Counted from the stretch's first letter, positions 3,237-53,860 are shown. The stretch is DNA of 64,000 nt from Desulfobacterales bacterium (GCA_030834695.1 JAUQXK010000031.1:24079-88078), one strand, 5' to 3'. Made by a program: numbers and translations. The notes: generated by a model from the letters alone, not told the origin.

Positions 3237-3243
3237 GGTTTTT

Positions 3244-4068: not shown

Positions 4069-4073
4069 AAATC

Positions 4074-4151: not shown

Positions 4152-4173
4152 TTGAAGCCGTCAAAGGAATGAA

Positions 4174-12634: not shown

Positions 12635-13891
12635 TCATAACGCTTCTGCGATCGATACGGTCCGGTCCCCCAGCATCCGAACGTAGCTGCCCTTCTCGTT
12701 GTCATACCAGCCATAAATAACCGCCTGGGTTACCGGAATGCGCACCACCACGCTTTTCAGCGACGCGAGCAGGGCGGGATCCATCCCCGGCACCTTGGCG
12801 AGATCGATGCAGGCCTCGGCCGTCCGGGTGTGGGTTTCCGCGCTTTCGATGATGGCCGCCGCACGCGGCATTCCGATGATATCCGTTGAAACATTCTGCT
12901 GCTCGGAATACATCAGATAACCGTTAAGGCTGTCGGCCGCCGCTTGACGGTAGATCGCGTTGATCGTCGCCCGGTCGATTCGACCCGCCGCGGTTTCTTC
13001 CTGCAGGTTGATCACCAAAATGATGAGCGACCCCGTACTGGTGGGAATGCGCACCGATTCGGCGATGAAAGGGATGTCCTTCATCTCCGGGATCACCAGC
13101 CGCAGCGCGTTGGCAGCGCCCGTGGACGTCAGGATGATGTTGTTCATGATGCTGCGGCTCTTGCGCAGGTCGCCCTTGCCGGCCTCCGGCAGGCGATCCA
13201 GCACCTCCTGGGAACTCGTCGCCGCATGCACGGTGGCCATCGTTGCCGACAGAATCCGTTTGGCCCCGAACGTGTCGATGAGCGGGCGCATCATATGGGC
13301 CAGACAGGTGGTGGTGCAGGAGGCGCAGGAGACGATGCGATGCTGCCGCGGGTCATAGTCGTTGCCGTTGATCCCCATGACGGTGGTGACGGCATCGGCG
13401 GGGACGGCGGCGGTCTTGTCCTTGATCTTGAAGGGCGCCGAGACCACCACTTTCTCGGCACCCGCCAGCAAATGCCCGCGCGCCGATCCCTTGGGGTCTT
13501 CCGGTCCGATGGTGGGGTCCAGGAATTGGCCGGTGGTGTCCACCACCAACCGGACACCGTATGCCCCCCAGCCGATATCCGCCGGATTGCGTTTTTCTCG
13601 CAGGAAGCGCACCGGCAGGCCGTCGATCCGGAGCGTTCCCTTTTTCTCATCGACTTCCGTGATCACCGGACGGGCTTGGTGGCCGTACAAGTATCCATGC
13701 AGCCACCCGTACGTCGAATCCCGCTCGACATAGTGCGCAACGTCCGCCAGCGATTTCCCGGCCGCCCTCCCGAGATTGACCACGACCTCCCCGAACGCCT
13801 TGCGCGCCACGTGGTGCCAGAGCGTCAGCTTCCCGATACGGCCGAGCCCGTTGATGCCCAGTTTGAGTCCTGAATCGGATAATCCGGCCAT
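12635..13891 (-). CDS. glyceraldehyde-3-phosphate dehydrogenase family protein, long divergent form (418 aa)
   Basis: It has the N-terminal Rossmann motif GINGLGRIGK, a catalytic-Cys motif SCASCTTTCLAH (canonical SNASCTTNCLAP) and TVHAATSSQ. The start follows GGGGAGG. It is about 80 aa longer than canonical GapA. Confidence 0.78.
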   Translation of the reverse strand: MAGLSDSGLKLGINGLGRIGKLTLWHHVARKAFGEVVVNLGRAAGKSLADVAHYVERDSTYGWLHGYLYGHQARPVITEVDEKKGTLRIDGLPVRFLREKRNPADIGWGAYGVRLVVDTTGQFLDPTIGPEDPKGSARGHLLAGAEKVVVSAPFKIKDKTAAVPADAVTTVMGINGNDYDPRQHRIVSCASCTTTCLAHMMRPLIDTFGAKRILSATMATVHAATSSQEVLDRLPEAGKGDLRKSRSIMNNIILTSTGAANALRLVIPEMKDIPFIAESVRIPTSTGSLIILVINLQEETAAGRIDRATINAIYRQAAADSLNGYLMYSEQQNVSTDIIGMPRAAAIIESAETHTRTAEACIDLAKVPGMDPALLASLKSVVVRIPVTQAVIYGWYDNEKGSYVRMLGDRTVSIAEAL

Positions 13892-38971: not shown

Positions 38972-39199
38972 TTAAATCCGGTCCAGCACCTCCAGCGGGA
39001 GACAATAAGATTCCGCCGCCGAATAGTTGTGCACGCTGGAAAGGCTGTCGCAAAGCGCATTCTGAACGCGATCCAGCAACGCACACCGGTCCATGCAATC
39101 CGGAAACGCTGCGTAGGTGCCGCAGTTCCGACAAGGGCTTTTGACCAGGTAACCACTATCATAGTCGAATTTGTGGGATAGTGCCTTGCTATGTTTCAT
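38972..39199 (-). CDS. small cysteine-rich hypothetical protein (75 aa; CX2CX9CX3C plus 3 further Cys)
   Basis: ATG 39199 (MKHSKALSHKF) follows GAGGGTGAG. The Cys pattern is CRNCGTYAAFPDCMDRC. It is convergent with pspC and has a 320-bp AT-rich region upstream. Confidence 0.5.
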   Translation of the reverse strand: MKHSKALSHKFDYDSGYLVKSPCRNCGTYAAFPDCMDRCALLDRVQNALCDSLSSVHNYSAAESYCLPLEVLDRI

Positions 39200-39517
39200 G
39201 CTCTCACCCTCTTGTCTTCGTGAGCGATGCAAATCTGGTAAGTTTATCGTCTTTTTGAATGGCAGACTTTAATTCCTGATTCTCTACAGATCTATACAAC
39301 TATCATGCCAAGACACTAAAAAAACATGTTTTTATATAATTTTCAAATAGTTGTTTAGTTTAACAACCTGTCGTGGTTCCAATTTTGGACTTGCTTTCCC
39401 GGATATGGGTGTCAAAAAATTGTCAGAATTCGGCAAGAAGCTACAGAAATGACCTGGTTTTCTTGCTGCTGCGATCAATCGGAAAGGCGGTCGCCCCCGG
39501 CAGATGATTCTGAATGG

Positions 39518-39736
39518 TCAGATGGGCTTGGGCTTGGTGTTGGCAGGCGCGGGTTTAGGAAGTGAAGTGCCCACCCGGGCAGGCTTACGTCTTCGTTTCT
39601 CACGGCGATGGAGCGAGGTTCCGATCATCAGCATCGACGCATGGACGGCAAAAAAATAAAAGAGGTTTCCTTCAGCCGAATGCGCCCCCAGGACCGCCAT
39701 TGCCGCCGCCAGCCAGAATAAAATTTTAGACCCCAT
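39518..39736 (-). CDS. small membrane protein (72 aa, two predicted TM helices, basic Pro/Lys tail)
   Basis: ATG 39736 lies 7 nt after GGAGG. The hydrophobic segments are ILFWLAAAMAVLGA and LFYFFAVHASMLMIG. Confidence 0.45.
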   Translation of the reverse strand: MGSKILFWLAAAMAVLGAHSAEGNLFYFFAVHASMLMIGTSLHRREKRRRKPARVGTSLPKPAPANTKPKPI

Positions 39737-39914
39737 CGCGTTGCCTCCGATCGAACACGCCCGAGAAAGGTATCGTCACTGTCGCCACAAAACATGAGCC
39801 GAAGGATGCGCCGTCGCTCAAGTCCGGAAATAAGGTGACCGATATATGCAACAGGCACCGTTGCAGGCGCTGCCTGGCGGGGCCACAAGCCCTGTATTCT
39901 GCCTGGAGGACATC

Positions 39915-41027
39915 ATGAAAAAGCCGGTCATGGCCTTTGTCAAGGACCTCAAGTCCAATAAAAAAATGCATTCCCTCGATGAGGCCTCCATCAGACAGGC
40001 CGTGGCTTTGAGGTTGCTGTCGTTGCTGGGTTGGGATATTTTCAACGTGGAAGAGGTCTACCCGGATTTTTCGTCCGAGTCCGTGACGGTGTCCTATGCG
40101 TTGCGCATCGACGGCGTCGGCAAGATGATTCTGGACGTGAAGCGTCCGGGCGAAAACCCGGATGAACTGCATAAGCAACTCGTTGCCTTTGCCGCCCGCG
40201 AAGGCGTTGACCTTGCCGCGCACACCGATGGGGCCCGCTGGTGGTTTTACTTGCCGACGGTCAAGGGTAGCCTGGCCCAGAAACGCTGCCATGTCTGCGA
40301 TTTGTTCGAACAAAAGCCGGAGGACATGGCGTTAGACCTGATGGCTTTTTTAAGCCGGGACAAGATCCTCAGCGGTGAATACCTCGAGTCGGCCAAAACG
40401 GCCTATCAGAAACATAAGCGCAAAATGGCGGCCAATGTCCTGCCGGACGCCTGGAACCGGGTGCTGACAGGGCCGAATAAGATCCTGGTGGAAATTTTAA
40501 GCGATGCGACCGAAAAAATATGCGGCTACAAAGCCGATCCGGGAGTGGTGGAGGAATTCATTCGGGCCCACTTCGAACAGTGGGCGCTTGCGCGCGAGCA
40601 GGTCAATGCCCCCCCGGCGCCCCCCCCATCCAACACGCGGATGGCTCCGTCCTTCCCCGTGCTCTCCGACAACAGCTCCGACATCAAAACCAAGAAACCC
40701 GAATTCTTTGCAGACAAAACGATTACCTCCTTCAGCTTCCAGGGCAACACGTACCCGGTAAAAACCTGGGAGGACATGTTGACCACGCTATGCAACTGTT
40801 TCGCTTCCACCCACTCTCAGGATTTTGAAAAAGTGCTCTGGCTTTACGACGACTTGAAGCCCTCTTTCTCGCGTTATTCGGACCAGCTGAGAATCCCGGA
40901 AAAAATCCGCAAGACGAACATCTACGTGGAAACCAAACTGCCCCCCGATGAAATCGTGAAAACCGTGGGCGACCTGCTGACCGAATTCGGCTACGCCCAC
41001 GACGATTTGGTTATCACCACCCAGTAA
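39915..41027 (+). CDS. hypothetical protein with an N-terminal HsdR_N-like (type I restriction enzyme R N-terminal, PD-(D/E)xK-like) domain
   Basis: ATG 39915 follows GGAGG. The N-terminal pattern is LDEASIRQAVALRLLSLLGWDIFNVEEVYPDF...VSYALRIDG..KMILDVKRPG. The C-terminal ~200 aa are unassigned. Confidence 0.55.
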   Translation: MKKPVMAFVKDLKSNKKMHSLDEASIRQAVALRLLSLLGWDIFNVEEVYPDFSSESVTVSYALRIDGVGKMILDVKRPGENPDELHKQLVAFAAREGVDLAAHTDGARWWFYLPTVKGSLAQKRCHVCDLFEQKPEDMALDLMAFLSRDKILSGEYLESAKTAYQKHKRKMAANVLPDAWNRVLTGPNKILVEILSDATEKICGYKADPGVVEEFIRAHFEQWALAREQVNAPPAPPPSNTRMAPSFPVLSDNSSDIKTKKPEFFADKTITSFSFQGNTYPVKTWEDMLTTLCNCFASTHSQDFEKVLWLYDDLKPSFSRYSDQLRIPEKIRKTNIYVETKLPPDEIVKTVGDLLTEFGYAHDDLVITTQ

Positions 41028-41184: not shown

Positions 41185-42624
41185 ATGGCCGACACGTTTC
41201 TTTTCTACGACACCGAGACCTCGGGCCTGAATCGGGCATTCGATCAGATTCTCGAATTTGCAGCCATCCGCACGGACCTCCGGCTGAATGAACTGGAGCG
41301 CTTCAGCGTCCGGATTCGGCTGCGGCCGGATGTGGTCCCCTCCCCCCAGGCCATTCTGGTCAACCGCATCCGCACCGACCGCTTTTCGTCGGGCCGCTGT
41401 GAATACGAGGCGATGCGAGAGATCCATGCGCAAGTGAACCGGCCGGGGACCACGAGCATCGGCTACAATTCGATCGGATTCGATGATGAGTTTTTGCGCT
41501 TTTCCTTTTACCGTAACCTGCTGCCGCCTTACACGCATCAATATGCCAGCCACTGCCGACGGATGGACCTTCTGCCCATTGCCATCATTTACTGGCTCTA
41601 TCGCGGCGACGTGCTGCAGTGGCCGGTCCTCAACGGAAAAGCCTCTTTGAAGCTGGAGGACATCGGGTCGCTCAACGAACTTTTTACGGGCCCGTCCCAC
41701 GAGGCCATGTCCGACGTAGAGGCTGCTTTAAGGCTCGCTCGGATTCTTTCCAGCGACCCGAAGATGTGGCTGTACCTGGACGGCTGTTTCCGCAGGGATG
41801 TGGACGCACAGCGCGCAGAGGAACTCCCTGCCGTGATCCGGAGCAGCCTGGGACCTCATCCGTTGGCTCTGCTGACGGGCAGTGAATTCGGCACCCGCCT
41901 GGCGTTTCAGGCACCGGTGGTGTCGATCGGATCTTCAATTCCTTATCCCAAGCAGACCCTCTGGCTGCGCCTGGACCTGCCCGATCTACGGGAAACCCGA
42001 CTCGAATCCATAGCCGATACCACCTGGGTGGCCCGCAAACGCTTCGGCGAACCGGCCATCCTGCTTCCGCCTCATGAACGCTACCTCGAGCGGATCGACC
42101 CCGATCGCCGCCAATGCATGCAGACAAACCTCGAATGGCTGGAGTCCCGCCCGCACGTTTTCGAGCGCATCATCCGCCACCACCGCCACTACCGTTACCC
42201 GTTCATACCGGACCTGGATGTCGATGCCGGCCTTTACCAGAACGGCTTTTTCGCAAAGTCGGATGAGGCCCTATGCCGCGAATTTCACGCCGGAGCTCTG
42301 CCCGCGAAAATCGCCACCCTCAACCGTTTCGCCGGGAGAGAGGCCCGCAGCCTGGCCGCTCGGGTGCTGTTCCGAAACCACACGGCCGACCTGCCCGATC
42401 CTCTTCGGGCCGAGTCCACCGCTTTTCTGGAACGCATTCGCCGCGGAGAGCCGATGCTGGACTTTACCGGCAGCCCGCGCCGCAGCCCGCAGTCGGCGCT
42501 GTCAGAAATAAATCAGTTGCAGCCGTCGGCCGGGCCCGGCACCGAACCGGCGGATATTTTGGCGGACCTGGAACACTACATCAAGAACCGTTTCGTCAAC
42601 GGCTTTGACGCGGGTAAAACATGA
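41185..42624 (+). CDS. sbcB: exodeoxyribonuclease I
   Basis: 479-aa ORF. The DEDDh exonuclease N-terminus is FLFYDTETSGLNRAFDQILEFAAIRTD and the later motif is HEAMSDVEA. The length matches ExoI. Confidence 0.88.
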   Translation: MADTFLFYDTETSGLNRAFDQILEFAAIRTDLRLNELERFSVRIRLRPDVVPSPQAILVNRIRTDRFSSGRCEYEAMREIHAQVNRPGTTSIGYNSIGFDDEFLRFSFYRNLLPPYTHQYASHCRRMDLLPIAIIYWLYRGDVLQWPVLNGKASLKLEDIGSLNELFTGPSHEAMSDVEAALRLARILSSDPKMWLYLDGCFRRDVDAQRAEELPAVIRSSLGPHPLALLTGSEFGTRLAFQAPVVSIGSSIPYPKQTLWLRLDLPDLRETRLESIADTTWVARKRFGEPAILLPPHERYLERIDPDRRQCMQTNLEWLESRPHVFERIIRHHRHYRYPFIPDLDVDAGLYQNGFFAKSDEALCREFHAGALPAKIATLNRFAGREARSLAARVLFRNHTADLPDPLRAESTAFLERIRRGEPMLDFTGSPRRSPQSALSEINQLQPSAGPGTEPADILADLEHYIKNRFVNGFDAGKT

Positions 42625-43790
42625 GCGCACCTCGGCCGGCAATGGACCGCCTTCGGCGCCAGTGGGCCGTCCTTGCAGCAATCGGCGCCGCCGGCACCGT
42701 CAGCGTCGCCGGCGCCCTGGCGCTGCGGGTCAGCCTGGGCGCAGCCATTCGCTGGAGCATTCCCACCGTCGTCGTTCTATCCTGGTTTCTTTGGCGCCTG
42801 CGAACCTCCTTGGATCGCAATCATCCCCCCGACGTCCCTGGATTGCATCCATCCCTCGGCGCTGCCAATGTGATCACCATGGCGCGGGCGGCGCTGGCAG
42901 CGTCGCTGGCCGGATTTCTTTTCCAGACGCCGATCATGGCGGCGGGCACCGTCTGGGACTGGCTGCCGGGGCTGGTCTATCTTTCCGTGGTGGCCATGGA
43001 TTTCGCCGACGGCCAAGTCGCGCGCATCACTGGAAACGTCACGTGCCTGGGAGCGTATCTCGACACTCAGGCCGATGCGCTCGGGTTGCTGCTGGCCGGT
43101 CTGCTCCTGGTAATCAGCGCCAAAGCCCCGCTGCCCTATCTTTGGGTCGGCATCGGCTACTACCTGCTGCAGGCGGCAATCCGGCTGCGCCGCGCCGTCG
43201 GCTGTTCGGTTAAGCCGGTGCCCCCGCGGCCGGACGCTCGGTGGGTGGCCGGATGCCAAATGGTCTTCGCCGCCTTGGCGCTGCTGCCGGTTTTCAAGCC
43301 GGAGGCCACGCAGCCGGCGGCTTGGGTCATGGCCTTGGCGCTGGGAGCCAGTTTGGGCATGGACTGGCATATCATCTGCCGCTCGGCCGTGTCGCCCGAC
43401 CGAACGTCCCCTCGAACACGGGGCGGCATGGCGCGGGCGGTGCTGGCCCGCAGCCTGCCCTTGGCGCTGCGGTTCGCCGTGGCGCTCAGCCTGATCCTGG
43501 CCGTTTTCGCAACGCCGGATGACGGATGGCGCGATGTGCCCGCGCCCGTCCGCGTGGGCGTGCTGGCGTGCGCCGCCCTTTGTGTTTTAGGGGTTGTCGC
43601 CCGGGTTGCTGCAATGCTATTAAGCCTGCTATGCGGGTTTTGGCTGGTTCCGGCGATGCCCGCAGGTGCCGCGACCCTCACCCTGACGGCGGCACTGTCT
43701 TTGGTGATGACCGGTGCCGGCGATGTGCGTCTGTGGCAGCCTGAAGACAGGATTCTGATGGGCACCCCGAGCGCGGACGCCGCCCGTTAA
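42621..43790 (+). CDS. CDP-alcohol phosphatidyltransferase family membrane protein with extra C-terminal TM helices
   Basis: The motif DFADGQVARITGNVTCLGAYLDTQADAL equals D-x2-DG-x2-AR-x8-G-x3-D-x3-D. The ATG overlaps the sbcB stop (ATGA). Confidence 0.8.
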   Translation: MSAPRPAMDRLRRQWAVLAAIGAAGTVSVAGALALRVSLGAAIRWSIPTVVVLSWFLWRLRTSLDRNHPPDVPGLHPSLGAANVITMARAALAASLAGFLFQTPIMAAGTVWDWLPGLVYLSVVAMDFADGQVARITGNVTCLGAYLDTQADALGLLLAGLLLVISAKAPLPYLWVGIGYYLLQAAIRLRRAVGCSVKPVPPRPDARWVAGCQMVFAALALLPVFKPEATQPAAWVMALALGASLGMDWHIICRSAVSPDRTSPRTRGGMARAVLARSLPLALRFAVALSLILAVFATPDDGWRDVPAPVRVGVLACAALCVLGVVARVAAMLLSLLCGFWLVPAMPAGAATLTLTAALSLVMTGAGDVRLWQPEDRILMGTPSADAAR

Positions 43791-43802
43791 CGCCCGGAAG
43801 AA

Positions 43803-44564
43803 ATGGAAAACGAACTCTCCGATCCTACTGCCCGCCATCGCTTCGTTCGGGGGCTGCCGGATTTGAGCGCCCTCCTGTCGGAAGCGGCCGAGTTCCGTTC
43901 CAGGCGGCGCCGTCCGTTCGTGGTGTTAAGCTATGCCCAGAGCGTCGACGGCAGCATTGCCGGCCGGAGGCGCGAGCGCATCCGGCTGAGCGGGGCCGAA
44001 TCCATGCATCTCACCTACTCCATCCGGGCGCGGTGCGATGTGATCTTGGTGGGGATCGGCACCATCCTGGCGGACGATCCCCGTTTGACGGTCAAGCAGG
44101 TGGATGGCCCCCACCCCCATCCCGTCGTTCTGGACACCCGTTTGCGAACCCCGCCGGCGGCTCGCCTGCTTCAGCGGCCGGACGTGCGGCCGTGGCTGAT
44201 CCACGCTCCGGCCGCACCGCCGGAGCGGATTCGCAGGCTGAGCCGGTCCGGCGCGGACCCAATGCCCTGCTCCGCGGCATCCGACGGCCGTATCGACCTG
44301 CCCGCCCTGATGCAGGCACTGGCCGAGCGGGCGGTCAACAGCGTCATGGTGGAAGGCGGCGCCCGGGTGATTACCAGTTTCCTGCGGCAACGGCTGGCGG
44401 ATGTGGTCATCGTCACCATCAGCCCGCAACTGGTCGGCGGCCTGCCCGTGATCGACCCCGGCGAGTCGGACCGGACGCTCGATCTGCACATAGACCATCC
44501 GTTCTACCAGACCCTGGGGCGCGATCTCGTCATATGGGGCCGCCCGCGATGGACGGCCGCATGA
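43803..44564 (+). CDS. RibD C-terminal domain (DHFR-fold) reductase
   Basis: VVLSYAQSVDGSIAGRRRERIRLSGAESMHLTYSIRARCDVILVGIGTILADDPRLTV is typical of 5-amino-6-(5-phosphoribosylamino)uracil reductase-like proteins. Confidence 0.75.
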   Translation: MENELSDPTARHRFVRGLPDLSALLSEAAEFRSRRRRPFVVLSYAQSVDGSIAGRRRERIRLSGAESMHLTYSIRARCDVILVGIGTILADDPRLTVKQVDGPHPHPVVLDTRLRTPPAARLLQRPDVRPWLIHAPAAPPERIRRLSRSGADPMPCSAASDGRIDLPALMQALAERAVNSVMVEGGARVITSFLRQRLADVVIVTISPQLVGGLPVIDPGESDRTLDLHIDHPFYQTLGRDLVIWGRPRWTAA

Positions 44565-45583
44565 ACCGCACCGCCGTCATCATGCACGGCCCCTTCCATA
44601 TCGGCGTGGACCGTGAAGCGTTCCGCCCGCCGGAGTCGGGCGAAGTCCTTGTTCAAGCGCATCGGTCGGCCATCAGCGCCGGCACCGAACTCCTGTTCTA
44701 TCGCGGCCGGGTGCCGCCAGACCAGCCTTTGGACGCAGGGCTGGCATCGCTGGCCGGGCCGGCGGCCTATCCGCTGCGCTACGGATATGCCGCCGTCGGC
44801 CATGTGGTCGGAACCGGCCCGGATGTTTCCGACCGCCTCTTGGGGCGGCGCGTGTTCTGCTTTCACCCGCATGCCAGCCACTTCGCCATAAGAACGACCG
44901 AAATCGTGCCGATTCCGGACAACCTGAACGACCACGACGCATTATTTTTCGCCAATATGGAGACCGCCGTCACCCTGACGCTGGACGGGCGCCCGGCGAT
45001 CGGCGAAACGGCGGCGGTCCTCGGCCAGGGAATCGTGGGACTGCTCACGGCGGCCCTGCTTGGCCGGCATCCGCTGCGCGGGCTTTTCACCGTCGATCCC
45101 ATTCCACGCCGGCGCAGGGCCTCTCTGGATATGGGCGCGCATGCCGCCTGGGATCCTGGGGAGATCACCCAGCTGAAGTCGCAGCTGGCATCCGGCACCG
45201 GCGGCGCCATGGCCGACCTGGTGTTCGAACTCTCGGGCGAACCATCCGCCCTAAATGCCGCCATCGAACTGGCCGGGTTCGGCAGCCGCATCGTCATAGG
45301 CTCCTGGTATGGAACCTCGTCGGCCGGGATCAACCTCGGCAGCCGTTTTCACCGCAGCCGCATCCGCATGATCGCCAGTCAGGTGAGCACCCTGCCCACG
45401 GATTTATCGGCGCGCTGGGACCGGCAGCGGCGCAGGGAGACCGCCTGGGAGATGATTCGTCTCACGCGGCCGGCCCGGCTCATCACTCACGAAATGCCGG
45501 TCGAGCATGCGGCGGAAGCCTATGACCTGCTCGACCGCCGGCCGGAGGAAGCGCTTCAGGTCGTTTTTGCTTATCCAGACTGA
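44561..45583 (+). CDS. medium-chain dehydrogenase/reductase (zinc-ADH-like) family protein
   Basis: ATG 44561 overlaps the upstream stop (ATGA). It has a GroES-like N-terminus (GEVLVQAHRSAISAGTELLFYRG) and a Rossmann segment AVLGQGIVGLLTAALL. The part of the ORF upstream of 44561 overlaps the previous gene and is rejected. Confidence 0.75.
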   Translation: MNRTAVIMHGPFHIGVDREAFRPPESGEVLVQAHRSAISAGTELLFYRGRVPPDQPLDAGLASLAGPAAYPLRYGYAAVGHVVGTGPDVSDRLLGRRVFCFHPHASHFAIRTTEIVPIPDNLNDHDALFFANMETAVTLTLDGRPAIGETAAVLGQGIVGLLTAALLGRHPLRGLFTVDPIPRRRRASLDMGAHAAWDPGEITQLKSQLASGTGGAMADLVFELSGEPSALNAAIELAGFGSRIVIGSWYGTSSAGINLGSRFHRSRIRMIASQVSTLPTDLSARWDRQRRRETAWEMIRLTRPARLITHEMPVEHAAEAYDLLDRRPEEALQVVFAYPD

Positions 45584-45598
45584 TGAGGAGGCATCCGA

Positions 45599-45976
45599 AT
45601 GTACACCGTTGCAGTCCAGGGCGAGCTCATCGCTCAGCATTACCTGATCGGCGCGGATTTCGGATTGGAGAACCAACTTCATTCTCACGCATACCGCATC
45701 GAATTTCGACTGAGCGGCAACGGCCTGGACCCCCACGGGTTCCTGGCGGATATCGACGCGATGTCGACGGCGCTCGATGAGGCGCTGGCCGGTTTCCGCG
45801 ACAAGACCCTGAACGATCTTCCGGAGTTTCAGGGGCTCAACCCGAGCATCGAGCATCTGGCGCGAATCCTGTGCCGCACCCTGCAGCCCCGATTCCCAAA
45901 CGCCGACCTGCGCGAAGTCGCCGTGACGATCTGGGAAACCCCCAGTGCTTGGGCGGCCTACCGGGAAACGATCTGA
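45599..45976 (+). CDS. 6-pyruvoyl-tetrahydropterin synthase/QueD (COG0720) family protein, atypical active site
   Basis: 125-aa ORF with the SD GAGGAGG. A three-His pattern is present (H14, H28, H30: AQH...LHSH), as is the LND motif. Confidence 0.72.
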   Translation: MYTVAVQGELIAQHYLIGADFGLENQLHSHAYRIEFRLSGNGLDPHGFLADIDAMSTALDEALAGFRDKTLNDLPEFQGLNPSIEHLARILCRTLQPRFPNADLREVAVTIWETPSAWAAYRETI

Positions 45977-47073
45977 TGCAGGTCGGCCTGGTCATCCGCG
46001 GCCGAATCGACACCCTGACCGGCGGATATCTCTACGACCGATTTCTGCGGGATGCCCTGTGCGCACGCGGCCACCGGGTGGAGGTGATCTCGTTGCCCTT
46101 GAAGCCCTATGCGTGGGGCCTTCTGGACAACCTCTCCGGCGCAACGACGGCCCGGCTGACCCACCGCAGGTGGGACCTGCTGCTGCAGGACGGGTTGTGC
46201 CATCCGTCCCTGATACGCGCCAACCGCCGCATTCGCGTCCGGCGGCGATCGACGATCGTCGCCATCGTGCACCAGGTGCTTTGCCGGCAGCCCCGCCGCC
46301 GGCTTCTCAATTGCGCCTACGGTTGGATGGAGCGGCTTTATTTTCGAACGACCGATGGGTTTCTGCTGACCAGCCGCTACACCCGCGACGCGGCCCGAAG
46401 GCTGGCGGCGGATAACGCCCCGATGCAGGTCGTCCCCCCGGCCGGGGACCGATTGGGGCAGAGCCTATCGCAGCAAGCCATCCTCGAACGCAGCCATCGA
46501 GCCGGCCCGCTGCAGTTGCTGTTCGTCGGCAACCTCTCGCCCGTCAAGGGCCTGGATTCCCTGTTGGAAAGCCTGTCACGCCTGCCGCCTGCCATGTGGC
46601 GGCTGGCCGTCGCGGGCAGTCTGACAGCCGACCGCAAGCACACGCGCGCCATTCGGAACTTTATTTCCGGTCGGGCGATGGGAGCGCAGGTGCAATTGCT
46701 CGATACCGTGGACGGCGATCATCTGCGCGCGTTGTTCACGTCCGCCCAAGTCTTCGTCATGCCCTTCGCGCACGAGAGCTTCGGCATCGCCGCTCTCGAG
46801 GCTATGGGCTTCGGCTTGCCGGTAATCGGTTCTGAAGACGGAGGCGTGAGGGAGTTCGTACATCACGCGCGCAACGGATTTCTGGTGGCGGCCGGGGATC
46901 ATGCGGCCGTTGGTCGCCATCTCGAATTTCTCCACAACGACCGCGCACGGTTGGCGGCAATGGGCCTGGCCGCCCGGCAGACGTTTTCAACGAGCCCCTC
47001 CTGGGCACAATCGATGCAGCGCGCCTGCGAGTTTTTGGAGGGTGTAGCCGGCGCCCGGCCGGGTGATCCCTGA
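45976..47073 (+). CDS. GT4-family (GT-B) glycosyltransferase
   Basis: The ATG overlaps the upstream TGA by 1 nt. The C-terminal motif FVMPFAHESFGIAALEAMGFGLPVIGSEDGGVREFV is the E-x7-E retaining-GT4 signature. Confidence 0.8.
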   Translation: MQVGLVIRGRIDTLTGGYLYDRFLRDALCARGHRVEVISLPLKPYAWGLLDNLSGATTARLTHRRWDLLLQDGLCHPSLIRANRRIRVRRRSTIVAIVHQVLCRQPRRRLLNCAYGWMERLYFRTTDGFLLTSRYTRDAARRLAADNAPMQVVPPAGDRLGQSLSQQAILERSHRAGPLQLLFVGNLSPVKGLDSLLESLSRLPPAMWRLAVAGSLTADRKHTRAIRNFISGRAMGAQVQLLDTVDGDHLRALFTSAQVFVMPFAHESFGIAALEAMGFGLPVIGSEDGGVREFVHHARNGFLVAAGDHAAVGRHLEFLHNDRARLAAMGLAARQTFSTSPSWAQSMQRACEFLEGVAGARPGDP

Positions 47074-47098
47074 GCCGAAAAAAGGGCCGAGGATCGTC

Positions 47099-48880
47099 AT
47101 GAACTGCATTTGCTTCCGCACCGACAGGCCCCTTCATGAAGCGCCACCGAGCCCGTGGCTGCCGGCGCTCCGGTTCGCGGCGGCGTTTTTATTCCTCAAC
47201 GCCCTTCTATGCCTGGAGATTCCATTCGGAAAGACGGATGGGGGCTCGCAGTGGCGGATCTCCTTGGACGGGCTCTGTCTGCTGGCCGCCATGTGCCTGT
47301 TGGTCCGTCCGGGTCGGCGTTTCAGACCGGCCGTTTATGCCGCCGTCACGGCGGGCGTAATACTGCTCAAGCTGTTTCAGTGGACCGACCGCCTGGTCCC
47401 GGCCGTCTTCAACCGCGCCTTCAGCCTGTTTCTGGATTCCCAGCGCCTGCCGGACCTGATATTTTTATTCTGGCTGACCCGGCCACTGGAGACGCTGCTG
47501 GCGGGGATGCTCGGCGCCGGGACGATCATCGCGGGTCTGAGTTGGAGTTGTTGGGTGACGCTCAAGATCCTGCATGACGGGTTGGCAGGCCGCCCACCGG
47601 CGCACCGGAACATCCGCCTGGCCGCTACCGTTTGGTCGGGTGTGGTGCTGGCTGCCGCCGCGGGCGCGCCCGCGGGCTGGGTCGGCGGGTCCGTTGTTCC
47701 GCGGGTGGCCGAGGAAGTGGGCTTCATCCTGAACCTGGGTGAAATCCGGGACCGGCACCAGGCGCTCCTGGGGCAAGCCATGCAGCGGGCGCTTCACGCC
47801 AGCAACGACCTGCGCGAGCTGGACCGAACCTCGGTGGTTCTGATCGTGGTCGAGTCCTACGGCATGAGCGCCTTCAGCGACCCGCGCCATGCCGCAACCG
47901 TCCTTCCGGCCGTACGGGCGGCGGAAGCGGAGCTGCGGTCCATCGGCTTCGACATGTGCTCGGCCTATCTATCCGCCCCGACCTTCGGCGGAGGATCCTG
48001 GCTGTCCCACGCCACGTTGGCCAGCGGCGTCCGCATCGACAGCCAGATCGCGCACGACCTGCTGCTGGCGTCGCGTCTCGTGCCCCTGGCCGAATATTTC
48101 AACCGGGCCGGCTACCGCACGGTCCGCGCCATGCCGGCAACCTTCTGGCCCTGGTCCGAGGGCGCTTATTACCGCTACGGCCAGGTGTTCATCGCACCGG
48201 ATTTCGGCTACCGCGGCCCGACCTTCGGCTTCGCCCCCATGCCGGATCAATTCGTGCTGGACTGGGTGGCACGCCGGACCATCCAGGCGGCGCCCGCCCC
48301 GTTGTTCGCCGAGGTGATTCTGACCGGCAGCCACGCGGCCTTCGATATCCAGGCACCTTACCTTGACGACTGGGACCGGATCGGCGACGGCTCCGTTTTT
48401 CACACCCTTCTGCCCGTGCGCTTCCCCTTCGGTTGGGCCCAGTTGTCCGAGGCGTCCCCGGCTTACAGCCACGCCGTCGTCCACGTCATGACGGTGCTGA
48501 AGAACTTCATGCGCCGCTTTATCGATGGGTCTGGACTCGTCATCGTGGTGGGCGATCATCAACCGTGCGTCGAGCTCATTGGCGAGGACCAGCCCTGGTC
48601 GGTTCCGGTTCACGTGATCAGCGCCGAGCCGGACTTCATCCGGGAATTCATGCGCAGGGGGTTTACCTCCGGCCTGGTGCCGGCGCAGCCGCCGCCGCAT
48701 CCCGGCCTGGAGACGCTGTTCTGGGATTTGATCGAGGGATTCAGCAGCGGCCGAGCCGACGCCGGCAGCTGGCCTGAGCTGGGAGAACACCGCGCCCCCG
48801 CTTCCGGAGGCCGCGCACGGTCAAGGCCTGCTCACGCACCGCCATCGGCCTTTCGGCAAACCGCCGAGTTCGGCAGATAG
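47099..48880 (+). CDS. membrane-anchored sulfatase/alkaline-phosphatase superfamily protein (LtaS/phosphoglycerol-transferase-like)
   Basis: About 5 N-terminal TM helices are followed by VVLIVVESYGMSAF...FGGGSWLSHATLASG, which is the pattern of LtaS/MdoB-type transferases. The start is ATG 47099 (or GTG 47063). Confidence 0.68.
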   Translation: MNCICFRTDRPLHEAPPSPWLPALRFAAAFLFLNALLCLEIPFGKTDGGSQWRISLDGLCLLAAMCLLVRPGRRFRPAVYAAVTAGVILLKLFQWTDRLVPAVFNRAFSLFLDSQRLPDLIFLFWLTRPLETLLAGMLGAGTIIAGLSWSCWVTLKILHDGLAGRPPAHRNIRLAATVWSGVVLAAAAGAPAGWVGGSVVPRVAEEVGFILNLGEIRDRHQALLGQAMQRALHASNDLRELDRTSVVLIVVESYGMSAFSDPRHAATVLPAVRAAEAELRSIGFDMCSAYLSAPTFGGGSWLSHATLASGVRIDSQIAHDLLLASRLVPLAEYFNRAGYRTVRAMPATFWPWSEGAYYRYGQVFIAPDFGYRGPTFGFAPMPDQFVLDWVARRTIQAAPAPLFAEVILTGSHAAFDIQAPYLDDWDRIGDGSVFHTLLPVRFPFGWAQLSEASPAYSHAVVHVMTVLKNFMRRFIDGSGLVIVVGDHQPCVELIGEDQPWSVPVHVISAEPDFIREFMRRGFTSGLVPAQPPPHPGLETLFWDLIEGFSSGRADAGSWPELGEHRAPASGGRARSRPAHAPPSAFRQTAEFGR

Positions 48881-50457
48881 ACGTCGAACCGGGTGCCTTT
48901 TCCGATCCGGCTTTCAACGACAATGGCGCCTTTGTGGCTTTTGACGATGCCGGATACGACCGCCAGGCCCATTCCGGTTCCTTCCCCGCGGTGTTTGGTG
49001 GTGAAAAACGGCTCGAAGATGCGCGACCGGATTTCGGCAGGAATACCGTGACCGCTGTCCTGAACAGTGAGCTTCTGATAGGCGCCCGGCCGCAGCTCAG
49101 GATGTTCGCTTAAGAAGGCCGGAGCCGGGCGGCAGCCTTCAAGACCGATGAAGACCTCGCCGCCGTTCTGACGCATGGCGTGGGCCGCGTTCGTACACAG
49201 ATTGATGATCACCTGGTGAATCTGCGTGGGGTCTGCCATGACCTCGGTTTGGCTGAGGAGCTGCGTGCGGATCGATATCGTTGAAGGCAGCGAGGCCCGC
49301 ATCAGATTCAAGGCTTCCTCGACGATGAGGCCGACCTGAACCGGTTTGAATTCGCAATCGGACTCCCGGCTGAACGTCAGGATTTGCCTGACCAGATCCC
49401 GGGCGCGATGGCCGGCCTTGAGGACCTGCTGCAGATTGCGATTCACTGCAGATGACGCTCCGGCTCCCATCATGGCGATTTCGGTGTGCCCCAGAATGGC
49501 CGTCAGGATATTGTTGAAGTCGTGAGCGATTCCGCCGGCGAGCGTACCGATGGCCTCCATTTTTTCGGCCTGCTGCAGCCGATCTCGAAATCGGTTCGTC
49601 TCCATTTCAAGATTTTTTAACCGGGAAATGTCCGTGGCGATCTGAAGCCGGACCAAACGACCGTCCACCCACTTAATGGCCCGGTCGTAGTTGAGGTACC
49701 ATTTCCCGGTGTCCTCGCTGCGGCTTTCCCAGACAAACCCCGTTCCGGGTTGACCGCCCGAGCCGACCCGCTCGGAATCGGCGCAGCGGGCGCAGGGACC
49801 GGTTTCCCGAGGGAAAACCTCCCGGCACGTCCGTCCCCTGAGCTCCCGTCCGTAGCCAGCCTGCAAATGCCGGTTCACGAAAAGGATTTCGTGGGTGTCC
49901 AGATCGGCCACATAAATATCCGCATCGATGCTGTCGAGAACGGTGACAAAACGGGCATGCGATTCGATCAGTGCTTTCTGGAAGAGTTTGCGTTCGGTGA
50001 TATCGGATGCCGCACCGGCCAGCGCCGTCAACCGGACGGATTCATCATAGACGCCCCGCACTCGGTTGCGAATCCAGCGAATGCCGCCGTCCGGCCGGAG
50101 GATGCGATATTCGATGTCCCGCGGGCTGTCACGAATCGAGCGGATTTCCTTGAGCACCCGCGGAAGGTCCTCCGGGTGCGCGGCCCCGACGATGGCGGCT
50201 GGCGGATGCGGCGCTTGTTCCCACGGCTGCCCCCAAACGCGCTCGAAGCCGGGGCTCGCAAACAGCAATGCACTCATATCCGGCAGGCTGACCCAGAATA
50301 CTTCCTGGATCGTGGCAGCCATTTGATGAAGCAGGAAGTCCGCGGATGGGACCGTGGCCGAATTCGGATGGTCAGGGCCGGCCGGCGCCATCCGGCCTAA
50401 TAAGAGAGCGTCACCAGGTTGTTCCATGCCCTGCTTTCCTCCACAGAAAAAAGCCAT
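48832..50457 (-). CDS. PAS-domain sensor histidine kinase (HisKA plus HATPase_c), orphan
   Basis: The H-box is IGTLAGGIAHDFNNILTAILGHTEIAM and the ATPase motifs are DSGHGIP and GTGMGLAVV. Two PAS-like segments are present. No response regulator is adjacent. The start is uncertain (50457 or 50427). Confidence 0.85.
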   Translation of the reverse strand: MAFFCGGKQGMEQPGDALLLGRMAPAGPDHPNSATVPSADFLLHQMAATIQEVFWVSLPDMSALLFASPGFERVWGQPWEQAPHPPAAIVGAAHPEDLPRVLKEIRSIRDSPRDIEYRILRPDGGIRWIRNRVRGVYDESVRLTALAGAASDITERKLFQKALIESHARFVTVLDSIDADIYVADLDTHEILFVNRHLQAGYGRELRGRTCREVFPRETGPCARCADSERVGSGGQPGTGFVWESRSEDTGKWYLNYDRAIKWVDGRLVRLQIATDISRLKNLEMETNRFRDRLQQAEKMEAIGTLAGGIAHDFNNILTAILGHTEIAMMGAGASSAVNRNLQQVLKAGHRARDLVRQILTFSRESDCEFKPVQVGLIVEEALNLMRASLPSTISIRTQLLSQTEVMADPTQIHQVIINLCTNAAHAMRQNGGEVFIGLEGCRPAPAFLSEHPELRPGAYQKLTVQDSGHGIPAEIRSRIFEPFFTTKHRGEGTGMGLAVVSGIVKSHKGAIVVESRIGKGTRFDVYLPNSAVCRKADGGA

Positions 50458-50609
50458 TCACCATCACCCGCCGGTTGCGGTGGGGCGGTTTTTTTGGGTT
50501 TCACCTTCAGCACGATACACGGCCGATGGGAGGGGAGCCGTGCCAGAGGAAGGAACAGGGCCTATTTTCTGGATATTCTAACACCAACCTACTGTAACCG
50601 CAAGGAAAA

Positions 50610-53600
50610 TTAACGCAGTGGAATTTCCTGAAACGACAAGCCCAGGTTCTGCGAAAGCGCCTTCAGGTCGTCCTCGAGCCGGATCGTCCGGCCGTCGGCT
50701 TTGGAAACCGAAATCGTCTTATCGGCCACGACCACCACCTGAATCTTCCGGGGGTCGAGCAGCCGTCGTGCAAGGTGCTGGAGTTCGTCCTGCGTGCTGG
50801 TGAAAAATGCGTCCTGGATCCGATTCAGCGTGTCGAGCGGCTCACGGCGCATGGCGTAGCGGCTGTACGCCTGAACCAGCTCCGCTTTGGTGTCCACATT
50901 GAAGACGAAGCTGTTCAACGTGTCCAGGCGTTTGAGTTCCAGCTCGCGGCCGGGAATACCCTGATGCAGGGATTTCATGATGTTGACCGTTTCAAGGATG
51001 GCGTCTCCGGCCTTGTCCCCCTTGCAGCCGATGACTCCCACGAGAAGCCCTGCTTGCCATTTGGCGGTTTGATAGAATCCGGCGGAGTAGACATATCCGA
51101 GGTCATCCCGCAGCCGGGTGTACATCAGTGAGTCGTTTCCGCCGAAAACGCTCATTAAAAGGTTCAGTTTCCAAAACTCCGGGTCGGCACGGGTAAGGCC
51201 GGGCAGTATCGCCACGACATTGGACTGGACCTGCCCCGGCTTGTGAATCAGGGCGACCGCGGGCGGGCCTGTCAATGGAGCCGCCGTCGGCCGCGGCGCC
51301 GGCTCGCCGGCCGGCAAGCCGGCGATGAACCGGCTCAACGTATGCCGCACCGGCTCGAGTTGAATATCCCCGGAAATCGCCACCACCATGTTGGCGGGAA
51401 CAAAGTAGGTGGAAAGGAACCGAATCATGTCCTCGCGGGTGATGGCCGGGATGGTGTTCAGCGCGGCCAGCGGATCCCTGCCGTAGGGATGGTCTTTGAA
51501 ATGCTGGATCAGGGCCTCTCGCATGGCCACGGCCTGGGCGTCCTCACCTTGCCGCCTTAAGTTGGCCATTTCCTGCTCTTTCGCTACTCCAAACACTTTG
51601 GCATCGAATCGCGGCCGGGTGAGCACCTCTTGCAGAATCCCGAGCCCCTTCTCCCAGTCGGAGGACATCACCGAGAGCTTGACGGCGGTTTCTTCCAAGC
51701 CGATGTCCACGCCCATTTTGATGGCGTTGTCATCGAGAAGCCCGGCCAACTGCACCGGCGTGTAGCTCTCGGTTCCGCCGCGGATGATCGTGCTGTCCAG
51801 AAGGTCCGTCAATCCGGCCTTGGAATCCGGCAGGTCGACTGCACCGGATCGAAGGTAAATCGTCATGTCGATGATCGGCAGCTCGGGGTCGGGCAGAAAA
51901 AACACCTGGGCCCCGCCGATCGTCATCTGAACGGCTTCGGGATAGTCTACGCGATGCGGATGGCGGTCAAAGGACAGCGGGTGTTTCCATCCGGCGGGCG
52001 TCGGATAAATCGAATGATTCCGAAGCGGCCCCTGGTAAAGTTCGCGTTCGGCGGCGGCATTGCCGCTGAGCGAGCGGACCTCCGCATAGGCTTCGGCCGG
52101 GCCGCGCGCCGCTCCGCCCGGGATTACGTAGCTCGTCGTCTGGTTCTCGGATCGGCCATATTCCCGGGCCACTCGCCGGATGTCTTCGGGGGTGACGGCC
52201 TCCATCCGGCCCAAGTAGTCGTTGAGGTAACGCCACCCGGCCTGCACTTCCAGCGTCGCCAGGGTTCCGGCGACACTTTCGTTGCTGCGCAGCCGATCGA
52301 TGAAATCGCGCCGATTGAGCTTCTTCAGACGCTCGAGCTCCTGGGGTGCAACCAATTCGGTCTTGAGCTTTTCCAACTCGGCGAGCAGGGCCCGCTCCAC
52401 GGATTCGCAGGCCGCAAGATAAGCGGTGCGTTTTTCCTCGTCGGCGGTTCCCGGCCGCTTCAATTCAGCGGGTTCGTTGGGCGAGCCGCCCAGGATCAGC
52501 ATCCCGCCGTAGCGCTGGTCGGGGTTCCCGGCCCAGGCTTCGACCGCCAACCCTTGTTCGACGATGTTTTGGGTCAGACGGGCGCTGCGCCCCTGACTCA
52601 GCACCATGGTCAGCGCATCCAGAGCGAAGAAGTCGGGCGTGTTGATGCGTGCACCGTGGAAGCCGATGCGAACCACGGGCGTGCGCGCCCCCTCCAGGAA
52701 ACGTACGCTCTTGCGCGGCCCCTGTTGGGGCGGCTCCGCCGTGACCGATTCCGGTGCGCGCGGTCCGGTCGGGTAGCGCTCGAAGTATCGTTCGGCCAGC
52801 CGTCGGGCGTCGGCCAGGGTCACATCCCCTGCCAGCACGCAGACCGCGTTGGCCGGATGGTAGTATTTCGAGTGGAATTCCATGGCATCCCGGGTGCTGA
52901 ACCCTTCCATGTCGGATTTCCAACCGATGACCGGATTGCGGTAAGGGTGGGCGGTGTAGGCCGTTGCATTCAGGTCGAGCCAGGCCGCGCCCTCCGGATT
53001 GTTGATGTAGCGAAAGGCCCACTCGCGCTGCACGACTTCCTTTTCGACGTAAAATTCGCGCCAGGACGGTTCGAATAGCTGTTCGCTGATGATCGCGAAC
53101 CATTGCTCGATCATGTCGGACGGCACAGAGGCGACGTATTGGGTTTGATCCTGGCTGGTGAAGGCGTTGACGCCGACCGCACCGTTTTTCCCAAGCTGAG
53201 AGGAAAAGACCTGCGGGATGTACAGTTTCTGGGCTTCCAGCCTCAACTGTTCCATCTCCGCGAGATTTTCCCGAATCACCTGGAGGTCGGGATTGCGTTT
53301 GGCCTGCTCGGCCTTGACCCGATCGTAGGCGGCATCGATGCGGCCCTGGAGTTCGGCGTCCTTCTGGAAGTCGGTCGACCCGAAGTTCTTGGTGCCCTTG
53401 AACATCATGTGTTCCAGCATGTGGGCAATGCCGGTTTTACCGCGCTCTTCCAGCGCGGACCCGGCACGGATCGCCAGGCGCACCGCCACCTGGGGGGTCG
53501 CCGGCCGCTCCACGACCAGGAACAACATCCCGTTCTTCAAGGAGAACTCTTTGACCTCCAACTGGAGCCGAGCGCCGCTTTCCGACGCGCTCGTCCCCCC

Positions 53601-53657
53601 GACGGCGATCAGCGCCGCAACCAGAAAAACCATACCGAATCGTAGAATCCGCATCAT
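50610..53657 (-). CDS. secreted tandem M16 (pitrilysin/insulinase) family zinc peptidase
   Basis: ATG 53657 follows GGAGAG. The signal peptide is MMRILRFGMVFLVAALIAVGGTSASE and the HxxEH motif is HMLEHMMFKGT. The ~1015-aa length corresponds to two M16 active/inactive domain pairs. Confidence 0.85.
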   Translation of the reverse strand: MMRILRFGMVFLVAALIAVGGTSASESGARLQLEVKEFSLKNGMLFLVVERPATPQVAVRLAIRAGSALEERGKTGIAHMLEHMMFKGTKNFGSTDFQKDAELQGRIDAAYDRVKAEQAKRNPDLQVIRENLAEMEQLRLEAQKLYIPQVFSSQLGKNGAVGVNAFTSQDQTQYVASVPSDMIEQWFAIISEQLFEPSWREFYVEKEVVQREWAFRYINNPEGAAWLDLNATAYTAHPYRNPVIGWKSDMEGFSTRDAMEFHSKYYHPANAVCVLAGDVTLADARRLAERYFERYPTGPRAPESVTAEPPQQGPRKSVRFLEGARTPVVRIGFHGARINTPDFFALDALTMVLSQGRSARLTQNIVEQGLAVEAWAGNPDQRYGGMLILGGSPNEPAELKRPGTADEEKRTAYLAACESVERALLAELEKLKTELVAPQELERLKKLNRRDFIDRLRSNESVAGTLATLEVQAGWRYLNDYLGRMEAVTPEDIRRVAREYGRSENQTTSYVIPGGAARGPAEAYAEVRSLSGNAAAERELYQGPLRNHSIYPTPAGWKHPLSFDRHPHRVDYPEAVQMTIGGAQVFFLPDPELPIIDMTIYLRSGAVDLPDSKAGLTDLLDSTIIRGGTESYTPVQLAGLLDDNAIKMGVDIGLEETAVKLSVMSSDWEKGLGILQEVLTRPRFDAKVFGVAKEQEMANLRRQGEDAQAVAMREALIQHFKDHPYGRDPLAALNTIPAITREDMIRFLSTYFVPANMVVAISGDIQLEPVRHTLSRFIAGLPAGEPAPRPTAAPLTGPPAVALIHKPGQVQSNVVAILPGLTRADPEFWKLNLLMSVFGGNDSLMYTRLRDDLGYVYSAGFYQTAKWQAGLLVGVIGCKGDKAGDAILETVNIMKSLHQGIPGRELELKRLDTLNSFVFNVDTKAELVQAYSRYAMRREPLDTLNRIQDAFFTSTQDELQHLARRLLDPRKIQVVVVADKTISVSKADGRTIRLEDDLKALSQNLGLSFQEIPLR

Positions 53658-53860
53658 GCCTGTCTCTCCGTAAGGATATGAATGAAGCCGCAAGAATCGC
53701 GACGAGGCAGAACGTATGGCCGGCCGCGGCGTTTTTCAAGCCCGGAGTTGCCTCCTGCTCCGCGACGCCCCGCTTTCAAGGAAAAGGGTGCGCCGGCATC
53801 CGCTCCAACCAGACGGGAAAAAGGCGCTCGCGCTCACCCGGCCGGTCGGCATTTTGGGGC

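Follow-up and report, generated by a model that had tools for sequence, protein, structure and literature searches.

A conserved six-gene module that may build an unusual phospholipid head group and transfer it outside the membrane

Enzymes of the LtaS/EptA type, which include MCR-1, OpgB and GacH, consist of about five N-terminal membrane helices followed by an extracytoplasmic alkaline-phosphatase-fold domain. Their donors are made by CDP-alcohol transferases, phosphatidylglycerol serving LtaS and phosphatidylethanolamine serving EptA. In mycobacteria the phosphatidylinositol/phosphatidylinositol mannoside (PI/PIM) operon pairs a polyol-phosphate CDP-alcohol phosphatidyltransferase, PgsA1, with PimA, a family 4 glycosyltransferase (GT4). 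The archaeal and fungal branch of riboflavin synthesis employs GTP cyclohydrolase II (GCH II) or III, ArfB and a diaminopyrimidine reductase, while PTPS, QueD and PTPS-III belong to COG0720. Here we describe a cluster of six genes, numbered g1 to g6 from 5' to 3', that resembles each of these systems in part. It lies in a 64,000-nucleotide stretch of DNA from a Desulfobacterales bacterium (GCA_030834695.1 JAUQXK010000031.1:24079-88078; hereafter the window). The six genes are one real module, common to sulfate reducers, actinobacteria (including Streptomyces) and some proteobacteria. We judge the chances to be evenly balanced that this module builds and uses an unusual GTP-derived, pyrimidine- or pterin-like phospholipid head group that g6 then transfers outside the membrane.

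The membrane protein g6 finds its top structural matches among the LtaS/EptA-type enzymes, with which it shares the helix and domain arrangement, and a CDP-alcohol transferase would likewise make the phospholipid that serves as its donor. In contrast to those enzymes, it has no detectable sequence similarity to them and is tied, in actinobacteria fused, to its own head-group synthase. The pairing of the CDP-alcohol phosphatidyltransferase-family protein g1 with the GT4 enzyme g5 recalls the PI/PIM operon, and the best, although weak, NCBIfam matches of g1 are the archaetidylinositol-phosphate (AIP) and phosphatidylinositol-phosphate (PIP) synthases. A tyrosine-phosphatase-family gene in two related loci (L013 and L017) could act as a PIP phosphatase. 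The window cluster, however, has no inositol-phosphate synthase, and its head-group branch comprises instead the RibD_C reductase g2, the medium-chain dehydrogenase/reductase (MDR) g3 and the T-fold protein g4. The likeness to the riboflavin branch lies in g2 and, in relatives, in genes for GCH II and a creatininase-family protein, but no version of the cluster contains a deaminase, lumazine synthase or riboflavin synthase. With the COG0720 enzymes g4 shares the PTPS domain, the zinc histidine triad and the pterin-binding motifs, while differing from them in its catalytic residues (see below).

Scanning of one genome per species with a g6-family profile recovered at least 590 relatives, from which 80 loci were kept and searched by tblastn with all window proteins and the proteins of two reference loci. 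Among loci with at least 7 kb of flanking sequence, the g6 homologue has all five partners as neighbours in 10 of 17 from Desulfobacterota and in 23 of 32 from Actinomycetota. Synteny is thus far above chance, and the cluster is no chance neighbourhood. In Desulfobacterota the order is invariant: CDP-alcohol transferase, (LPG_synthase_TM), RibD_C, MDR, (PEMT), PTPS-like, GT4, (methyltransferase), sulfatase-like. A minimal form of six genes is found in the window and in loci L001, L002, L004 and L020 (in L020 the CDP-alcohol transferase gene was undetected by tblastn). The locus closest to the window, L001 from an uncultured Desulfatibacillum sp., is 65-82% identical to it. Partial versions occur in a few proteobacteria. 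A locus from a metagenome-assembled genome (L073) comprises sulfatase-like, CDP-alcohol transferase, MDR, PTPS-like, GT4 and methyltransferase genes, and in Roseibium aestuarii (L049) a cassette of MDR, PTPS-like, GT4 and methyltransferase genes adjoins the sulfatase-like gene. The trio MDR, PTPS-like and GT4 has the same order in the window, in Mumia (L080) and in Streptomyces (L083), with g4 identity of only ~26-32%, and in relatives the GT4 gene always comes after the PTPS-like gene. Across phyla the identities are even for all members, at ~28-41%. This evenness, together with the match of g3 to the MDRs of actinobacterial clusters, fits a cluster inherited as a unit. A lack of synteny in relatives had been named beforehand as one outcome that would refute the original prediction; the opposite was found, gene neighbourhood being kept in several phyla.

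The two membrane proteins at either end of the cluster are also joined by gene fusion. In ~25 actinobacterial loci, including complete isolate genomes, a single protein of ~785 amino acids (aa; range ~750-830) carries an N-terminal CDP-OH_P_transf domain and a C-terminal sulfatase-like domain; g1 aligns to its N-terminal part (E = 4e-10, the motif region being 41% identical) and g6 to its C-terminal part (E = 2e-54). The fusion protein displays 13 hydrophobic segments, equal to the eight of g1 plus the five of g6. If its N-terminus is cytoplasmic, like that of solved CDP-alcohol transferases, this odd number of segments would place the C-terminal domain across the membrane from the CDP-alcohol transferase active site. 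The view that the CDP-alcohol transferase and the LtaS-like protein serve one process, on opposite faces of the membrane, is strongly backed by these predicted features, and the fusion lends the same weight to the earlier suggestion that the first and last enzymes cooperate. A single fusion of CDP-alcohol transferase and LPG_synthase_TM was found in a Desulfobacteraceae locus (L006). An apparent fusion of GT4 and sulfatase-like domains (P0069) was considered as Rosetta-stone evidence and dropped. Over positions 2075-5280 of its contig (L081) the PTPS-like protein is joined to the N-terminal half of the GT4 and the C-terminal half of the GT4 to the sulfatase-like part, a pattern that probably reflects assembly frameshifts. 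It serves as a warning that single metagenomic 'fusions' are not safely read as real.

In the window the six genes are co-directional open reading frames (ORFs) occupying 42621-48880 (+), with no gene intervening on either strand when the ORFs are read directly (Table 1). Read in the same way, the junctions are ATGA or TGATG overlaps or gaps of 12-25 nt: g1 is followed by g2 after 12 nt; g2 and g3 share ATGA; the 15-nt gap between g3 and g4 holds a GAGGAGG Shine-Dalgarno sequence; the g4 stop and the g5 start share TGATG; and g5 is separated from g6 by 25 nt, given a g6 start at ATG 47099. This start is more likely than GTG 47063, and the 593-aa form that it yields matches the public record P0001. 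The g1 start itself overlaps the stop of an sbcB-like gene by ATGA. The tightly coupled cluster of six genes overlapping the sbcB stop is therefore as originally predicted. The six domain calls made at that time have also held, five of them above the Pfam cut-off and that of g6 on structural grounds, as has the statement that no single described pathway uses this combination: neither the searchable literature nor the curated NCBIfam models assign the gene set to a pathway.

Table 1. Genes of the cluster and its upstream neighbour (positions in the window)
Feature	Coordinates	Strand	Basis
g1, CDP-alcohol phosphatidyltransferase-family membrane protein, 389 aa	42621-43790	+	Pfam PF01066
g2, stand-alone pyrimidine reductase (RibD_C), archaeal/fungal type	43803-44564	+	Pfam RibD_C
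g3, medium-chain dehydrogenase/reductase (MDR), 340 aa	44561-45583	+	Pfam ADH_zinc_N
g4, T-fold PTPS/QueD-like protein, 125 aa	45599-45976	+	Pfam PTPS
g5, GT4 (GT-B fold) glycosyltransferase, 365 aa	45976-47073	+	Pfam Glycos_transf_1
g6, LtaS/EptA-like membrane protein, 593 aa	47099-48880	+	AlphaFold2 model + Foldseek
sbcB-like exonuclease I (RNase_T + Exonuc_X-T_C), upstream neighbour	41185-42624	+	Pfam

The g1 protein matches CDP-OH_P_transf at 51.9 bits (cut-off 22), has about eight hydrophobic segments by hydropathy and, in translation, contains the complete motif D-x2-D-G-x2-A-R-x8-G-x3-D-x3-D (DFADGQVARITGNVTCLGAYLDTQAD). None of the NCBIfam equivalogs compared with it was reached, the scores and cut-offs being 29.5 and 180 for AIP synthase, 23.6 and 170 for PIP synthase, 22.6 and 107 for PssA and 22.7 and 109 for PgsA. 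The g6 protein is more isolated in sequence. It scores 18.4 bits against Pfam Sulfatase (PF00884), under the cut-off of 25, and has no match in NCBIfam; the profile of its family, which has 2571 representatives among 1.84e9 proteins, matches no PDB sequence. Its hydropathy profile has five peaks, and an AlphaFold2 model (predicted local distance difference test score, pLDDT, 78) consists of membrane helices at residues 21-187 followed by an alpha/beta domain. Foldseek searches of the PDB with this model gave LtaP/LtaS, full-length MCR-1, EptC, GacH and PbgA as the best matches, with E values of 4e-9 to 1e-7 for LtaP, LtaS, MCR-1 and EptC. It is because of the model and these matches, the Pfam score being sub-threshold, that g6 is called LtaS-like. 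The family alignment shows no variation at E252, S300, H412, D486 or H487, and T295 is found in at least 90% of members. Within the predicted catalytic domain E252 and the D486/H487 pair each come just past a strand, and T295 is placed between a strand and a helix. Stand-alone alphaproteobacterial homologues of g6 are located directly upstream of a large AsmA/YhdP-like gene in L030 (11449-15018) and L057 (11523-15011). The AsmA/YhdP-like family is tied to lipid transport, and the adjacency suggests that the g6 family has envelope-lipid roles beyond the cluster. A check for other partner genes of the alphaproteobacterial homologues found most of them in unrelated contexts. In two Desulfobacterota loci (L007 and L018) a g6 paralogue lies outside any cluster, by DUF1786, beta-CASP and Lon protease genes, from which it appears that the family has diversified within this phylum.

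The fold of g6 invites an alternative to transfer of a GTP-derived head group, in which the module carries out synthesis resembling that of lipoteichoic acid (LTA). In such a scheme g1 would make the donor phospholipid, g5 a glycolipid anchor, and g6 would polymerize the phospho-head group on this anchor outside the membrane instead of decorating a molecule already present. The best fold matches, LtaP and LtaS, are indeed LTA synthases, and the combination of a GT-B enzyme, a flippase-like protein (its gene is present in most relatives) and an LtaS-like enzyme follows the established YpfP/LtaA/LtaS logic. MCR-1, EptC and GacH, which perform single transfers, nevertheless match the g6 fold about equally well, and diderm Desulfobacterota and proteobacteria are among the carriers of the cluster. 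Furthermore, translational coupling of the GT4 gene to the T-fold gene is a constant feature, which suggests that the glycosyltransferase takes the head group rather than diacylglycerol as its substrate. LTA-like synthesis is thus unlikely, although it survives better than any other rival of the head-group reading.

The four central proteins bear on the origin of the head group. In g2 the RibD_C domain is matched at 139.4 bits and the deaminase domain is absent. The protein passes the TIGR00227 ribD_Cterm model marginally (150.3 bits against a cut-off of 150.15) and falls under the archaeal reductase equivalog TIGR01508 (134.6 against 186.45); its best PDB matches are 2,5-diamino-6-ribosylamino-pyrimidinone 5'-phosphate reductases (6p8c, 7lrh and 2azn; E = 1e-30 to 3e-25). 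Only the Rossmann half of g3 is recognized by Pfam, ADH_zinc_N passing at 39.5 bits (cut-off 31.8) and ADH_N failing at 18.8 (cut-off 23.5). The GxGxxG nucleotide site of g3 is GQGIVG, and by eye the catalytic zinc ligands are missing, with GYA (GYAAVGH) for GHE and ISAGTE for CGSD. Its scores of 127 and 111 bits against MDRs of actinobacterial clusters are above those for any named family or PDB entry. Its best NCBIfam match, BchC, is far under the cut-off at 78 bits, and its nearest solved relatives, at low scores, are polyol dehydrogenases for butanediol, xylitol and iditol.

The T-fold protein g4 matches Pfam PTPS (PF01242) at 87.2 bits. When aligned with an Escherichia coli QueD reference sequence, His14, His28 and His30 coincide with the zinc histidines of QueD. 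The protein retains the NPSxE (Thr/Ser-x-Glu) and C-terminal Glu motifs, and NP(S/T)xE is kept across phyla. In PTPS and QueD these motifs hold the 2-amino-4-oxo-pyrimidine ring. In the same alignment g4 lacks the catalytic Cys, for which it has Glu/Asn, and the Asp-His dyad, where DK replaces DH, and it falls under the QueD equivalog TIGR03367 with 37.1 bits against 89.25. The glycosyltransferase g5 matches Glycos_transf_1 (PF00534) at 103.1 bits, while its N-terminal Glyco_trans_4_4 score of 29.0 is just under the cut-off of 29.7. Its PDB relatives are generic GT4 enzymes, namely sucrose-phosphate-synthase-like proteins, MshA, tetrahydrobiopterin glucosyltransferase and PimB'. None of the six window proteins or their actinobacterial orthologues reaches an NCBIfam equivalog.

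Genes that accompany the module in relatives give further indications of its substrate. The flippase-like LPG_synthase_TM is encoded in 34 loci, class-I methyltransferases recur in relatives' clusters, and PEMT-family phospholipid methyltransferases are found in L004 and L006. The flippase-like and PEMT-type partners point to a process that involves a membrane lipid. In 10 actinobacterial loci a GCH II gene lies directly beside RibD_C. Linkage to the cluster had been expected to bring a switch of the canonical RibA Tyr to Met, an idea that was abandoned: all 10 GCH II copies linked to g6-type clusters retain the Tyr, and only a Streptomyces copy has Met. Other genes, specific to certain lineages, were seen at the cluster edges. 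In Desulforhopalus (L013; 2447-3232 and 11644-12090) these are a Y_phosphatase3 tyrosine-phosphatase-family gene, which recurs in L017, and a nucleoside 2-deoxyribosyltransferase-like gene, and in Mumia (L080; 2345-3178) a class IV aminotransferase gene.

The counterpart of the module in Streptomyces was recognized through g4, whose best solved relative (E = 1e-8) is PDB 3D7J, 'Uncharacterized protein SCO6650' of Streptomyces coelicolor. With the PTPS-like protein of the Mumia cluster it shares 68% identity, and homologues, under generic public names only, are ubiquitous in Streptomyces. In the Streptomyces locus L083, the PTPS-like protein of which is 98% identical to 3D7J, the order is a divergent stand-alone CDP-alcohol transferase, MDR, PTPS-like, GT4, methyltransferase-like, LPG_synthase_TM, a creatininase-family ORF and GCH II, with a spacing that fits SCO6648-SCO6655. 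The cyclohydrolase contains KLRAMALQ, and thus Met at the position of RibA Tyr105. SCO6655 is reported to turn GTP into a 5-formylamino product owing to its Met120 (Spoonamore et al., Biochemistry 2006), a switch with which the Met of the L083 enzyme agrees. The creatininase-family ORF at 13044-13808 (-) of L083, between LPG_synthase_TM and the Met-variant GCH II, scores 226 bits for its family and is missing from the called genes of the record. Its product could be a deformylase for the formylamino product of the cyclohydrolase. ArfB, an archaeal formamide hydrolase, also belongs to the creatininase family; identification of the L083 protein as ArfB was not upheld, its score being 38 bits against a cut-off of 180, and the deformylase is accordingly treated as hypothetical. 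The structure paper on SCO6650 from the same laboratory (Acta Cryst F 2008) is said to describe a protein with no zinc, no PTPS activity and a physiological role that was unknown. Otherwise SCO6650 and SCO6655 appear in the searchable literature only in a metabolic-model table, and a 2026 review (PMC13151069), which cites Spoonamore et al. as its reference 32, says of the third GCH II copy only that it has a new function with no relation to flavin biosynthesis.

The Streptomyces version differs from that in the window in several respects. Its CDP-alcohol transferase is a stand-alone enzyme of 261 aa, and neither a sulfatase-like nor a RibD_C gene lies nearby. Conversely, three genes that the window lacks are present, for a flippase-like protein, a methyltransferase and a GCH II of its own. 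In the T-fold protein one of the zinc histidines has been lost (LHGA), whereas g4 of the window keeps all three. GCH II, RibD_C and the creatininase-family gene, together with the pyrimidine-binding motifs of the T-fold protein, tie the head-group branch to ring-opened GTP intermediates of riboflavin synthesis. The original guess that the central enzymes make a pterin-like alcohol gains support from the same evidence, that is the GCH II genes beside RibD_C in the 10 loci, the creatininase-family and Met-variant GCH II genes of Streptomyces, and the g4 motifs.

On the head-group reading, the pathway would start with the opening of GTP by GCH II to yield 2,5-diamino-6-ribosylamino-pyrimidinone 5'-phosphate. 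The enzyme is cluster-encoded in some actinobacteria, and in the Desulfobacterales bacterium a housekeeping copy would presumably serve. Like the archaeal and fungal riboflavin reductases, g2 would reduce the ribosyl to a ribityl group. The trio of g3, which would be NAD(P)-dependent, g4 and g5 might then oxidize or reduce, possibly cyclize, and glycosylate the pyrimidine- or pterin-like polyol, and in many lineages the head group would be methylated. Alternatively, g5 may add its sugar to the completed lipid, in the way that PimA acts on phosphatidylinositol. At the cytoplasmic face of the membrane g1 would join the alcohol to CDP-diacylglycerol, after which the lipid would pass to the outer leaflet, in most relatives perhaps with the help of the LPG_synthase_TM flippase-like protein, the gene for which is missing in the window. 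There g6, in the manner of LtaS, EptA or OpgB, would use a Thr/metal centre to take the phospho-head group from the lipid and either pass it to an acceptor in the envelope or polymerize it. Such a scheme is a variant of the known sequence of head-group synthase followed by alkaline-phosphatase-type transferase. With a head group derived from GTP, the product would be a new lipid class. Only tentatively do we specify this class further, as a lipid or envelope substituent with a ribitylamino-diaminopyrimidine or pterin-like glycoside as head, linked by a phosphodiester to diacylglycerol and transplanted to the surface by a sequence-isolated LtaS-like transferase. Its synthesis would form a third branch from GCH II, beside riboflavin and F420, and would explain SCO6650 and SCO6655.

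Several observations weigh against the head-group scheme. Every chemical step in it is predicted from family membership. The g1 protein fits no characterised phosphatidyltransferase subfamily, and its donor could be other than CDP-diacylglycerol. As g4 lacks the catalytic residues of PTPS and QueD, and its actinobacterial orthologues also lack one zinc histidine, the T-fold protein may be only a ligand binder. Within 64 kb, the flippase-like and GCH II genes are absent from the window and its closest relatives. GCH II accompanies only 10 of ~35 clusters, and RibD_C is missing from Streptomyces and from some proteobacterial versions; the GTP-derived front end would thus not be universal. Similarly, the lack of a nearby sulfatase-like gene in Streptomyces suggests that the transfer step is optional, and many alphaproteobacterial homologues of g6 stand alone.

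The same gaps in the front end are accommodated by a reading in which GTP is not the source and an ordinary sugar or polyol derivative forms the head group. A sugar phosphate would then be the substrate of RibD_C, MDR and the T-fold protein, and the GCH II link in some actinobacteria would be secondary. That GCH II occurs in 10 loci only, that RibD_C is missing from L073, L049 and L075 as well as from Streptomyces, that g4 is without the PTPS catalytic residues and that the nearest solved relatives of g3 are polyol dehydrogenases are all in keeping with this idea. It does not readily account for g2, which passes the ribD_Cterm cut-off and is closest to diaminopyrimidine reductases, or for the T-fold pterin- and pyrimidine-binding motifs that are kept across phyla. 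Moreover, Streptomyces has exchanged RibD_C for GCH II and the creatininase-family gene, another pair from the GTP branch. We regard a non-GTP polyol as doubtful, somewhat more so than LTA-like synthesis.

A soluble product, namely a pterin or pyrimidine glycoside or phosphodiester with a role as cofactor, pigment or compatible solute, is improbable; in this case g1 would work like di-myo-inositol-phosphate (DIPP) synthase, linking a pair of soluble alcohols, and g6 as a hydrolase. Pterin glycosides occur in cyanobacteria, Chlorobium and Sulfolobus, and DIPP synthase, a member of the CDP-alcohol transferase family, is an established maker of a soluble phosphodiester. The resemblance of g5 to tetrahydrobiopterin glucosyltransferases (E = 2e-9 and 9e-8), which might also be cited in favour of a soluble product, is weak and no better than that to other GT4 enzymes. 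Against such a product, no version of the cluster has a cytidylyltransferase to make the CDP-alcohol, and the flippase-like and PEMT-type membrane genes recur. In addition, g6 has five membrane helices and is fused to the CDP-alcohol transferase, in which the odd helix number puts its domain outside the cell. Finally, an accidental assembly of housekeeping riboflavin, folate or queuosine genes with envelope genes is very improbable and is at odds with the synteny and fusion data: although public records name the members generically (RibD, 6-carboxytetrahydropterin synthase), the set is kept across phyla, fused and translationally coupled, deaminase, RibB, RibH, QueC and QueE genes are absent from the cluster, and g4, without the catalytic Cys, fails the QueD cut-off.

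The sbcB-like gene is outside the conserved module; the only relatives in which it borders the cluster are the closest ones, L001, L002 and L020. These loci alone also share an upstream ORF at 39846-41027 (+) without a Pfam match and a double M16 peptidase gene (1027 aa, 50610-53693, -). A PAS/HisKA/HATPase_c histidine-kinase gene, 48832-50457 (-), converges on g6 so that the two 3' ends share 49 bp (48832-48880), and the overlapping C-terminal tail of g6, ~40 aa long, is unconserved in the family alignment and has a pLDDT below 50. The G+C content of the cluster (42500-48500) is 0.64-0.68, compared with 0.50-0.57 upstream (39000-41000) and 0.59-0.62 downstream (49000-51500). This may reflect horizontal acquisition in the past, and the cross-phylum identities of ~30-40% argue against recent transfer of the cluster. 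An Rfam scan of the window and seven related loci found no riboswitch.

The comparative data point to genetically tractable hosts for the module, S. coelicolor, Micromonospora and Roseibium aestuarii, and to a minimal version of six genes suited to heterologous expression. If the head-group reading is true, it would define a new subfamily of LtaS/EptA-like transferases and assign a function to proteins whose crystallisation and assay almost twenty years ago revealed no role. To our knowledge, no membrane lipid with riboflavin- or pterin-type chemistry has been described. Ribityl-aminopyrimidine derivatives are precursors of the ligands of mucosal-associated invariant T (MAIT) cells, and surface-displayed versions of them could be of immunological interest. 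The carriers of the module comprise thousands of Streptomyces genomes, many soil actinobacteria, sulfate reducers and some proteobacteria, and in all of these a widespread module would, on this reading, make an envelope lipid or surface modification from a riboflavin- or pterin-type intermediate.

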